Shown in pieces: positions 6,915 through 8,833 of a DNA stretch of 37,235 bases; within the stretch, counting starts at the first letter, position 1; every line of letters starts with the position of its first letter. This DNA comes from Escherichia phage D108, in the sequence record NC_013594.1; one strand, written 5' to 3'. A program made the position numbers and the translations under genes. Below the pieces are notes generated by a model that was not told the origin of the DNA, ran no database searches, and saw nothing but the letters and a program-made list of their open reading frames with translations.

Positions 6915-7444
6915 TGTTTTTTAAAACGTCAAATCCCACAGCACTGCTGGCATGGGACCAGTTTATGGCGGACTGCCTGAAACTACGCGAAGAAGCCCGC
7001 CATCTTGATAAGGTTCTGGACTGTGGTTGCCGGTCAGTATTCAGTACAGGTATTGGTGGGCGTCATTTTCATGGCGTGAATTTTCCGGGGAATGAGCGCC
7101 CCTTCTCGCGGGAGCTGTGGACCGTACAACGGCCCGCATCAGGTAACAGTTGCAGGCCCAGAACTTCACGGATACCTGCTCATCTCAGGGAGCAGGCAAG
7201 AGAGCTGGCGAAAATATGGCAGGAGAATATTCCAGTCACTTACGCCCGCACAGACGCTCTTTTACCCGCACTGGGACTGGATTTCAGCGCAACAATATTC
7301 GGGCCGCTCCAGTGGTTCCGTGTTGGTGATGTGATTTACGTCATGACGGGGATGCCCCCCGCACAAGGCCGCATGACTGAAATCCTTTCTGACGAATTTA
7401 TCCGGGCGCAAAAACAGGCAGAGGTAAACAATGGAAAACAATGA
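6914..7444 (+). CDS. Hypothetical early protein (about 176 aa; ATG overlaps upstream stop)
   Basis: ATGA-type start/stop overlap at 6912-6916; the ORF-track start at 6875 is probably an upstream extension. Confidence 0.55.
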   Translation: MFFKTSNPTALLAWDQFMADCLKLREEARHLDKVLDCGCRSVFSTGIGGRHFHGVNFPGNERPFSRELWTVQRPASGNSCRPRTSRIPAHLREQARELAKIWQENIPVTYARTDALLPALGLDFSATIFGPLQWFRVGDVIYVMTGMPPAQGRMTEILSDEFIRAQKQAEVNNGKQ

Positions 7445-7613
7445 AACATCGTATTCGTGGCTGGGGAAATTTACCACGGTGAAACAGGAATGCCCGACCT
7501 GCGGTAATGAATCTCCTGAATATCTGAAAGAGTGCCCTCATTGTGGCGGGCAGAAATGCAACCACTGCGATATGGGCGATGACACGGCGTGCATGAATTG
7601 TGAAGGTGAATAA
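7431..7613 (+). CDS. Cys-rich zinc-ribbon small protein (60 aa)
   Basis: CPTCG...CPHCGG...CNHC...CMNC motifs. Confidence 0.55.
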   Translation: MENNETSYSWLGKFTTVKQECPTCGNESPEYLKECPHCGGQKCNHCDMGDDTACMNCEGE

Positions 7614-7614
7614 T

Positions 7615-7905
7615 ATGAATAATGAAACTAAATTTACGCCTAAAGACCTGGATGAAGAACTGGTGAAAGCTAAGATGCTTGAGCGTATGCACGATGTTAT
7701 TGAGACTGCAATCAGTAAAGGCTTTTCTGCGAGAGAGGCCCTTGAAATTATGACACGGGAAATTCATCTCATACGCGACGAAGTTTTGTTGCATAACAAA
7801 AAAGCCCACAACAATATTGTTTGTCGTGAGCTTGGCGTTGATGATTCAGCGGTTATTCCACAGCGTCAGTATCTGTGTGCTCTGATGAGAGGTTCCCGGC
7901 ATTAA
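7615..7905 (+). CDS. Hypothetical early protein (96 aa)
   Basis: ATG at 7615 with SD GAAGGTGAA upstream (the track begins at an upstream GTG, 7600). Its 3' end overlaps the convergent leftward ORF by about 53 bp. Confidence 0.5.
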   Translation: MNNETKFTPKDLDEELVKAKMLERMHDVIETAISKGFSAREALEIMTREIHLIRDEVLLHNKKAHNNIVCRELGVDDSAVIPQRQYLCALMRGSRH

Positions 7906-8212
7906 CAATATCCTGCCTTGAAGCCCAGAGCTTATTGAGCAGCAGATCAACATACTCATCGGCCTCAAAATCCAGTTCTTCGAACGTTTTTCGGTTCTTA
8001 TAGCTGGCCTGTGTATTTCTGATGATGTCATAAGCATCGTGCATGTTGATAACACCGTTTTCAATCAGCTTAATCATCAGATTACCGACCAGCATAAAAC
8101 CGGTTATACCAAAGAATTTATCCTGGTTATTAACAGGGGTGTCTTTCTGGTTTGTTTCGAAATCTGGGTTTTGTTCATCATCCGACACCGTATGTTGTTC
8201 TTGTTCAGCCAT
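7853..8212 (-). CDS. Leftward hypothetical acidic protein (119 aa) embedded in the rightward early operon
   Basis: Clean ORF with SD (AAAGGAAATATT-ATG on the minus strand) and CTG-dominated Leu codons. No credible plus-strand ORF covers 7906-8281: the plus-frame extension upstream of gemA translates to junk. Confidence 0.55.
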   Translation of the reverse strand: MAEQEQHTVSDDEQNPDFETNQKDTPVNNQDKFFGITGFMLVGNLMIKLIENGVINMHDAYDIIRNTQASYKNRKTFEELDFEADEYVDLLLNKLWASRQDIVNAGNLSSEHTDTDAVE

Positions 8213-8281
8213 AATATTTCCTTTTATGTTATTACTGAATATGGCGGTGTTGCAGCACCGCCTCTTTCCGGAGGTACGATC

Positions 8282-8833
8282 ATGAGTCGCACATCCCTGA
8301 TTAAATTAATCCATGTCGCCCGTCGGGAGCTACAACTCGACGACGACACTTACCGCGCTTTTCTGATGCAGAAAACGGGCAAAATCAGTTGCCGCGAGCT
8401 TACGGTTACGCAACTGGAACAGGTGCTCGATGCCATGAAAGAACGCGGCTTTAAGAAGCTGAATAAATACCCCCGTCGCCGCTTTAAGGAACATGTCACA
8501 CCCCGCGAGAAGGTGTATAAAATCTGGCAGCAGATGGCAGAAGACGGTTTTATTACCGATGGCGGTGATGTGGCGCTGGATAAATATGTTCAGCGCCTGA
8601 CGGCGAAACGTAATGGCGGACAGGGTGTTTCCACGCTGGCTTGGTGCCACGGAGAATCGTTGCAAGTTGTGCTTGAAACCCTGAAACAGTGGCACATCCG
8701 CTGTATTCGTGAAGCCTTTTCCCGTCACGGGCTTCCGTTGCCGGTCAGTCCGTCCGGGCGTGAACTGCGCGGCTATGATGCCATGACGGCGGCTTATGCC
8801 CATGCCAGAAAGACACGGAGGATGGCACAATGA
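8282..8833 (+). CDS. gemA: GemA-like early protein (183 aa)
   Basis: ATG at 8282 with SD GGAGG upstream; lies immediately before mor as in Mu (the track start at 8039 is an unlikely extension). Confidence 0.7.
   Translation: MSRTSLIKLIHVARRELQLDDDTYRAFLMQKTGKISCRELTVTQLEQVLDAMKERGFKKLNKYPRRRFKEHVTPREKVYKIWQQMAEDGFITDGGDVALDKYVQRLTAKRNGGQGVSTLAWCHGESLQVVLETLKQWHIRCIREAFSRHGLPLPVSPSGRELRGYDAMTAAYAHARKTRRMAQ

Follow-up and report, generated by a model that had tools for sequence, protein, structure and literature searches.

What is a leftward open reading frame (ORF) doing inside the rightward early operon of a Mu-like phage? The question is raised by a short segment of Escherichia phage D108 (NC_013594.1), whose sequence of 37,235 nucleotides, referred to here as the window, is a Mu-like (Muvirus) genome. 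A first-pass annotation, made from the letters of the window, had placed a minus-strand gene between a 96-aa plus-strand ORF and gemA, and had suggested that it is expressed in the repressed prophage or belongs to an antisense regulatory pair. Here we ask whether this ORF is a gene, which known gene it corresponds to, and under what circumstances it may be expressed. The ORF and its plus-strand neighbour are called gp15 and gp14 throughout, after their counterparts in Mu.

Layout of the locus

Table 1. Positions of the features of the gp14-gp15-gemA locus in the window.
Feature	Position	Strand	Basis or description
gp14/E15-type early gene, 96 aa	7615..7905	+	37% identity to Mu gp14; phrog_6075; dN/dS 0.21; PGAP CDS WP_021526007.1
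AT-rich mosaic cassette (gp14 body and gp15)	7641..8242	.	blastn break points against Mu; GC 41.2%
Leftward intrinsic terminator (putative)	7792..7833	-	scan; stability against synonymous recodings; covariation
gp15-type gene	7853..8212	-	119-aa acidic protein; ORF; dN/dS 0.29 against L019; homologues in the same slot; profile link to Mu gp15
Shine-Dalgarno sequence of the gp15-type gene	8219..8224	-	AAAGGA; AAGGA core 8223-8219, 6 nt before the ATG at 8212
Hairpin/inverted repeat GGCGGTG-N6-CACCGCC, gemA leader	8243..8262	.	stems invariant across the loci examined
gemA, divergent neighbour of gp15, 69-bp spacer	8282..8833	+	PF06252, E 3.4e-31

Every coordinate that the first-pass annotation had given for the ORFs, their overlap, the gap and the hairpin was verified (Table 1). 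The gp14-type ORF has 96 aa when counted from the ATG at 7615; the program-made ORF list starts it at a GTG at 7600. Its 3' end and that of gp15 converge and overlap by 53 bp (7853-7905), and its stop is separated from gemA by a gap of 376 bp (7906-8281), in which the sole long plus-strand ORF is a GTG-started extension of gemA (8039-8833). The description of gp15 as a well-formed, acidic ORF with a Shine-Dalgarno (SD) sequence also holds: the predicted protein has a pI of 4.28, with 24 Asp and Glu against 9 Lys and Arg residues, and an AAAGGAA motif precedes the ATG at the same spacing in all non-Mu subtypes, with GAGAGGA in Mu.

Coding evidence for the minus-strand frame

ORF length alone is weak evidence for a gene at this locus. 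Dinucleotide shuffles of the segment yield a minus-strand ORF of at least 119 aa in 1% of cases, and the whole window carries 27 minus-strand ATG ORFs of at least 100 aa, gp15 and the repressor gene included, most of which lie antisense to plus-strand genes. Substitution patterns were examined by comparing the window with L019, the DNA that encodes a full-length, 119-aa homologue of 64% identity (P0013). In this comparison, the gp15 frame has a dN/dS of 0.29 and zero stops in either sequence, whereas the other five frames have values of 0.52-1.02 and four of them contain stops in both sequences. The fifth, plus frame 1, is that of the gemA extension; a single stop interrupts it in the window but not in L019, and its dN/dS of 0.78 marks it as non-coding, in line with the earlier view that no credible plus-strand gene lies in 7906-8281.

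The constraint on gp15 extends over its entire non-overlapping length, with dN/dS values of 0.27-0.30 that take in a 27-residue acidic N-terminal extension (0.30). Purifying selection on this extension makes the ATG at 8212 the likely start. Within the 53-bp overlap, where sites are few, the constrained frame is that of gp14 (0.19) and the gp15 tail tolerates change. Near-identical copies of the gp15 ORF differ by only two substitutions, both non-synonymous, which are too few to inform.

A rival explanation is that the minus-strand frame is open by chance and that the true feature is a plus-strand gene like Mu_54, a 55-aa ORF that the re-annotated Mu record AF083977.1 carries in place of gp15. 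This is what the abundance of long antisense ORFs and the shuffling result would allow, and the few differences between Mu and SfMu alter gp15 more than Mu_54; with five differences in all, that comparison is too small to decide between the two frames. However, the D108 gap holds no plus-strand ORF except the junk extension of gemA, the plus frames show stops or dN/dS values of 0.5-1.0, and a conserved plus-strand ORF across subtypes is absent from the loci examined, relatives having none over 7906-8281. The minus-strand frame, by contrast, is conserved in related phages, being intact and homologous over at least six diverged subtypes, and its SD sequence and a leftward terminator are conserved with it. 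We regard the chance-ORF explanation as extremely improbable and effectively excluded. Judged by its substitution pattern and its conserved slot, the gp15 ORF is a real protein-coding gene under purifying selection, and the proposal of a leftward gene convergent with and overlapping its neighbour stands. The evidence favours the RefSeq call of a minus-strand gp15 in Mu over the later AF083977.1 call of a plus-strand Mu_54.

Homologues and relation to Mu gene 15

Across positions 7400-8500, the window is 98.9% identical to Escherichia virus Mu_3F6, while Mu, SfMu and several Yersinia Mu-like phages match this region only at its two ends. The ORF is called as a CDS in Mu_3F6 (LR595867) and by PGAP (WP_021526008.1), and the identical protein occurs on about 760 public contigs, named ‘hypothetical protein’ every time. 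Exhaustive HMMER and profile searches together point to a small family of about 20 clusters, each labelled ‘hypothetical’ and none from outside E. coli, Salmonella and Klebsiella: the exhaustive HMMER search gave seven matches, and profile searches over 5.8 billion proteins returned only 17-19 clusters, again all ‘hypothetical’. One of the seven HMMER matches, to a 606-aa sushi-like repeat protein (P0003), was dismissed as compositional. The gp15 homologues share 14-64% identity and do not vary in position or orientation among the related loci. Each homologue that could be located on a contig is the immediate upstream neighbour of gemA, divergent from it across a spacer of 66-81 bp, and the coding overlap with the 3' end of the gp14-like gene ranges across gp15 subtypes from 28 to 74 bp (62 bp in Mu and SfMu, 53 bp here).

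Comparison with the annotation of the Mu early region identifies the D108 ORF as the counterpart of an annotated gene. In RefSeq Mu (NC_000929), gp15/Mup15 occupies the same slot on the minus strand (7896-8162, 88 aa) with a 62-bp gp14 overlap, and the same leftward gene is found in SfMu and in Yersinia phage Tongde. The SfMu genome paper lists four leftward ORFs and gives the largest overlap as 62 bp, between orfs15-16 (PMC4406740). A left-end record from 1991 (M64097) already shows a putative minus-strand ‘F-134’ at the gp15 position, and Mu gene 15 has been annotated since 2002, appearing in Swiss-Prot as ‘Uncharacterized protein gp15’ (GP15_BPMU, NP_050619). The gene, its strand and its overlap are therefore already known from public annotation of Mu, SfMu, Mu_3F6 and E. 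coli prophages. A search of the literature found no paper that deals with what Mu gp15 does or how it is expressed.

The two proteins are related at the level of profiles. Pairwise BLASTP between D108-type and Mu gp15 gave no significant match, and their pairwise identity is only about 14-16%. Yet both match the same region of the phrog_32893 profile (E 5.4e-7 for the D108 type and 5.9e-4 for Mu), and hhalign aligns residues 32-68 of the D108 subfamily with residues 6-42 of Mu gp15 (E 2.2e-4, probability 45%). The shared core of about 45 aa, as seen by profiles, has the pattern Y/F-D-x-A-G-[FY]...L-[VI]-x-K-x-[VI]-I, and one locus (L034) carries an intermediate subtype that bridges the D108 and Mu types. 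The BFVD model of Mu F-134 (Q38493) superposes on our gp15 model with an rmsd of 2.4 A over 65 residues, which is not significant (Foldseek E 5.3, query pLDDT 59).

Apart from this profile-level homology, Mu gp15 and the D108 ORF have in common the slot between gp14/E15 and gemA, the minus strand, the convergent gp14 overlap, the conserved hairpin before gemA and a leftward terminator at the same gp14 codons. They differ in length (119 aa in D108 against 88 aa in Mu), the Mu type being without both the 27-aa acidic N-terminal extension and a C-terminal LWxSRxD motif, and in PHROG assignment (38610 for D108 gp15, 8747 for Mu gp15). Because of the shared phrog_32893 match, the profile alignment, the L034 intermediate and the common slot, with the superposition listed alongside them, we assign the minus-strand ORF, on comparative grounds, as the D108-type allele of Mu gene 15.

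A mosaic cassette of gp14 and gp15

DNA homology to Mu (95-97% identity) stops at 7640 and resumes at 8243 in blastn comparisons, delimiting a 602-bp mosaic replacement. The AT-richness noted in the first-pass annotation belongs to this cassette, which has a GC content of 41.2% against 51.8% for the whole window and 52.8% for each flank, and falls within the lowest 2.7% of 602-bp windows. Between flanks that are 95-97% identical, Mu and D108 share only 37% identity in gp14 (E 7e-19 for the D108 protein against Mu gp14, or E15) and about 14-16% in gp15. Furthermore, gp15 adjoins gp14 on the opposite strand in 18 of the 20 viral contigs with a gp14 homologue, the exceptions being a contig end and a gp15 deletion. 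These sequence comparisons show gp14 and gp15 being exchanged and diverging together as one AT-rich cassette.

The gp15 gene is absent from vB_YpM_3, vB_YpM_23, PhiR68_1 and the IMG/VR contig L046; in vB_YpM_3 and L046 the deletion is precise and gp14 is intact. Truncated gp15 alleles occur on many Salmonella contigs. Since natural gp15 deletions exist, the gene is dispensable, its loss not being lethal to the phage. The gp14-gp15 cassette is a hot spot of recombination and diversification in an otherwise nearly invariant early region, the kind of place where genes of phage-host or phage-phage conflict are frequently located.

A leftward terminator within gp14

A scan for intrinsic terminators identified, on the minus strand and 20 nt past the gp15 stop, a 13-bp stem (7833-7802) followed by TTTTGTTATG. 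This candidate leftward terminator sits within codons 63-73 of the gp14-type gene. A hairpin and T-run are found at the same gp14 codons in every subtype, including Mu, even though the gp14 amino acids differ there, and the Mu hairpin had already been flagged by TransTermHP in AF083977. When gp14 was recoded with synonymous codons, structures as stable as the native hairpin arose in none of 1000 recodings for the window, 1 of 1000 for Mu and 2 of 1000 for L030, and in 8 and 20 of 1000 for L013 and L015, respectively. In an alignment of ten subtypes read in the leftward sense, 93% of cells are paired and five pairs show compensatory changes, against 32-48% pairing in slid controls. Read in the rightward sense, the same alignment has 80% of cells paired; this weaker pairing arises because many G-U pairs turn into A-C mismatches. 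A T-run after the stem is present in the minus sense only.

By these comparative criteria the terminator is under selection, and in the leftward sense, which provides good evidence for a leftward transcript ending about 105-110 nt inside gp14. With a terminator of its own, gp15 would therefore have a defined 3' end. Separately, we note that a private leftward terminator fits a transcription unit that is independent of the early promoter.

The gemA leader hairpin and expression signals

The hairpin that had been described between the gp15 start and gemA (ggcggtg-ttgcag-caccgcc) is present as stated, and the mosaic cassette reaches rightward as far as this hairpin. Its stems are invariant and its loops variable in all Mu-like loci examined, and it is kept upstream of gemA in three phages without gp15, namely vB_YpM_3, L046 and PhiR68_1, the last with its outermost pair changed from G-C to A-T. 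We therefore assign it to the gemA leader and do not retain it as a feature of the leftward gene. Downstream of the hairpin in the plus sense come a T/C-rich tract and the gemA SD sequence (GGAGG), in that order; the quality of the tract varies, from TCTTTCC here to TCTTTTTT in L011 and CATTTTTT in L019. The hairpin also falls within a feature annotated as ‘semi-early promoter’ in AF083977. The window contains no further copies of the inverted repeat, and an Rfam search with the hairpin gave nothing relevant. Possible roles in the gemA leader are those of a leaky terminator, of a structure at an mRNA end or of an operator.

A sigma-70 consensus scan of the minus strand across 7300-8600 found no leftward promoter for gp15, and inspection by eye revealed only weak -10-like hexamers beside the hairpin. 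Likewise, neither scanning nor inspection by eye found a rightward ‘Pgem’ promoter. The space from the conserved hairpin to the gp15 ATG is only about 30 nt. Low-level rightward early transcription has been reported in Mu prophages (PMC3820752), and constitutive gem expression is cited in a passage of the same paper (its reference 71). Given these reports, opposing transcription in a lysogen is realistic. Expression of gp15 in the prophage is plausible from the layout of the locus.

The predicted gp15 protein

A moderate-confidence AlphaFold2 model of gp15, built on a 12-sequence alignment, has a mean pLDDT of 59 (75-81 in the core) and comprises a disordered acidic N-terminus (residues 1-28), helices at 29-51, 57-72 and 84-105, and a disordered tail. 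The first, hydrophobic helix contains Asn, Lys or Arg in all subtypes and looks like a buried packing helix, not a membrane span. The best explanation of the locus includes gp15 as a small, acidic, mostly helical and probably cytoplasmic protein, the product of a non-essential accessory gene.

The search for homologues and structural relatives led to the Mu gp15 family, as described above, and not to a defence, immunity or functional family, so that the immunity-like function suggested in the first-pass annotation finds no support in these searches. Pfam, NCBIfam and PADLOC scans of gp15 and 11 family members gave chance-level matches only (the CARD family at E 0.16), and among the defence and toxin-antitoxin models of PADLOC gp15 had no match and gp14 a chance-level one only. 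A PDB sequence search with the gp15 family profile yielded nothing below E 0.05, and Foldseek against PDB and BFVD no match with E <1. The Rip1 protein of phage HK446 (9oox_A), considered as a fold match, was rejected as noise (E 6.4, rmsd 21.7). The fast diversification of gp15 beside nearly invariant neighbours suggests that the protein binds a variable partner. Candidate partners would be its neighbour gp14, a host factor or one from a competing phage, and a core replication or regulatory role seems less likely.

Discussion

The explanation that we favour, with moderate confidence, is that gp15 is an accessory, D108-type allele of Mu gene 15 that constitutes a separate leftward transcription unit within the rightward early operon and is likeliest to be expressed when the early promoter Pe is quiet. 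Translation would start at 8212 behind AAGGA, the CDS ending at 7853, and transcription would stop at 7833-7792 inside the convergent gp14-type gene, so that roughly 105-110 nt at the 3' end of gp14 would be covered by antisense gp15 mRNA. Because gp15 faces the strong Pe and has a private terminator, its own promoter would be expected to act mainly in the prophage or under low early transcription. After induction, gp15 would be damped by convergent Pe transcription and by RNA pairing.

Much of this layout would also suit a locus whose main role is antisense or transcriptional interference, in the manner of lambda oop-cII, lowering gp14 or limiting Pe read-through into gemA-mor, with the protein secondary. 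The convergent 3' coding overlap is kept in all subtypes despite their sequence differences, and the terminator, selected in the leftward sense, lies about 50 nt deeper in gp14 and would lengthen the RNA complementarity accordingly, from the 53-bp coding overlap by about 55 nt up to the terminator. We nevertheless judge this account unlikely, since the gp15 frame is under purifying selection over its non-overlapping length, its SD sequence is conserved, and phages with a precise gp15 deletion are viable isolates. An antisense effect as such is compatible with the favoured explanation. It is distinctly unlikely, in our estimation, that gp14 and gp15 are a coupled two-protein module, acting through binding or neutralisation or through joint exclusion or defence, with their expression linked by the overlap. 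The mosaic break points enclosing both genes, their adjacency in nearly all viral contigs that carry gp14 and their joint divergence between conserved flanks speak for such a module, but co-inheritance may reflect mere physical linkage and overlap, and neither PADLOC nor toxin-antitoxin families provide a match. Moreover, gp14 persists intact without gp15 in vB_YpM_3 and L046, and gp15 is therefore not an essential antidote to gp14.

A further alternative places gp15 in the lytic phase, as an anti-defence or host-takeover gene served by an activator-dependent leftward promoter after infection or induction. This would account for the lack of a recognisable constitutive sigma-70 promoter, and the conserved inverted repeat just upstream could bind a regulator; small, acidic, fast-evolving phage proteins are, besides, typical of host- or defence-directed inhibitors. 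Against it, an orientation opposed to a very strong early transcript would hinder expression while Pe is active, phages that lack gp15 retain the inverted repeat as well, and gp15 has no homology to a known anti-defence protein, which makes a lytic-phase role very unlikely. A more elaborate scheme, speculative and quite improbable, would make gp14-gp15 a co-diversifying two-gene switch: gp15 transcription in the prophage, its terminator and the gemA-leader hairpin would together block leaky early transcripts from reaching gemA-mor, and the gp15 protein would target gp14 or something variable in the host or a competitor, exclusion of other phages being one example. If true, such a switch would guard against accidental entry into the lytic cascade.

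In itself, the finding of gp15 in D108 matters little, as the gene and its odd orientation were already publicly annotated under the name ‘hypothetical protein’. What this analysis adds is the link between the D108 and Mu types of gp15, the covarying terminator within gp14, the reassignment of the hairpin to the gemA leader and the argument that the Mu_54 call is wrong. For decades this gene of a model phage has been left unstudied; with its family and the embedded covarying terminator now defined well enough, a clean experiment on it can be designed.

Comparison with known systems

Phage morons such as HK97 gp15 and lambda bor/lom are autonomous accessory genes; each brings its own promoter and terminator and is expressed from the prophage. 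D108 gp15 resembles them in having a putative intrinsic terminator of its own, a deviant base composition, a presence that varies among relatives and a non-essential character, and by virtue of its orientation it is predicted to be transcribed independently of the surrounding operon. It differs in that no promoter was found for it and that its expression in the prophage is a prediction. Moreover, whereas morons lie between late genes, D108 gp15 lies antisense inside the early operon and overlaps its neighbour; it is always paired with gp14, and the segment of deviant GC content includes gp14 too.

The nearest parallel in arrangement is the oop/cII pair of lambda. The partner there is a short non-coding RNA of 77 nt, whereas the D108 leftward transcript would encode a protein under purifying selection. 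The two loci otherwise look alike, with a leftward transcript in a rightward early operon, a 3' overlap and a terminator inside the rightward gene, all of which are, in D108, predicted from sequence.

Variation between gp13 and gemA

Just upstream of the gp14-type gene lies a gp13/E14 homologue, which carries four CxxC pairs with weak matches to zinc-ribbon and DnaJ-CXXCXGXG domains and is, on these motifs, a small early protein predicted to bind zinc. Between gp13 and gp14, SfMu and Yersinia phage vB_YpM_3 encode an additional ORF of about 102 aa that is missing from both Mu and the window, which makes the stretch from gp13 to gemA a hot spot with multiple alleles.

The gp15 gene itself has been precisely deleted by natural events in vB_YpM_3 (L009) and in an IMG/VR contig (L046). 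In both, 12 nt follow the gp14 stop codon before the conserved hairpin and then gemA, and the deletions apparently arose via recombination at a short TGAT repeat. Truncated or frameshifted family members are also numerous (P0017, P0018, P0012, P0014, P0020 and P0004-P0006), some of them present on dozens of contigs, such as a 43-aa Salmonella allele found on 64; thus, gp15 seems to be decaying in some lineages.

Coordinates of features in and around the gp13-gemA interval (locus coordinates except where the window or Mu is named)
Feature	Source	Position	Strand	Length	Remark
gp13/E14 homologue	window	7431-7613	+	60 aa	just upstream of gp14-type gene
Extra ORF	SfMu, L007	516-824		~102 aa	between gp13 and gp14
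Extra ORF	vB_YpM_3, L009	503-811		~102 aa	between gp13 and gp14
gp15 deletion	vB_YpM_3, L009	1100-1165			precise
gp15 deletion	L046	1480-1580			precise
Mu_54	Mu, L002	2021-2188 (Mu 7960-8127)	+	55 aa	updated record AF083977.1
gp15	Mu, L002	1957-2223 (Mu 7896-8162)	-		RefSeq NC_000929
Second leftward ORF	L011	3950-4378	as gp15
Second leftward ORF	L012	3981-4385	as gp15
Second leftward ORF	L019/L020	3964-4386	as gp15

The gemA leader and flanking leftward ORFs

The gemA start is separated from the hairpin by a T/C-rich tract (window 8263-8281, with equivalents in the relatives' loci L011, L013 and L019) that complements the gemA SD in several subtypes (CCTC with GAGG in the window, CCAT with ATGG in L019 and CTTC with GAAG in L013), an alternative pairing that may sequester the SD.

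Directly downstream of gemA, some relatives (L011, L012 and L019/L020) encode a further ORF of 134-142 aa antisense to the early operon, for which Pfam returned no match, suggesting a second leftward accessory slot.

Finally, the same site in Mu is annotated in two ways, as plus-strand Mu_54 or as minus-strand gp15. Across the family, conservation extends to the minus frame as well as to the SD and terminator that go with it, so the Mu_54 call is probably wrong.
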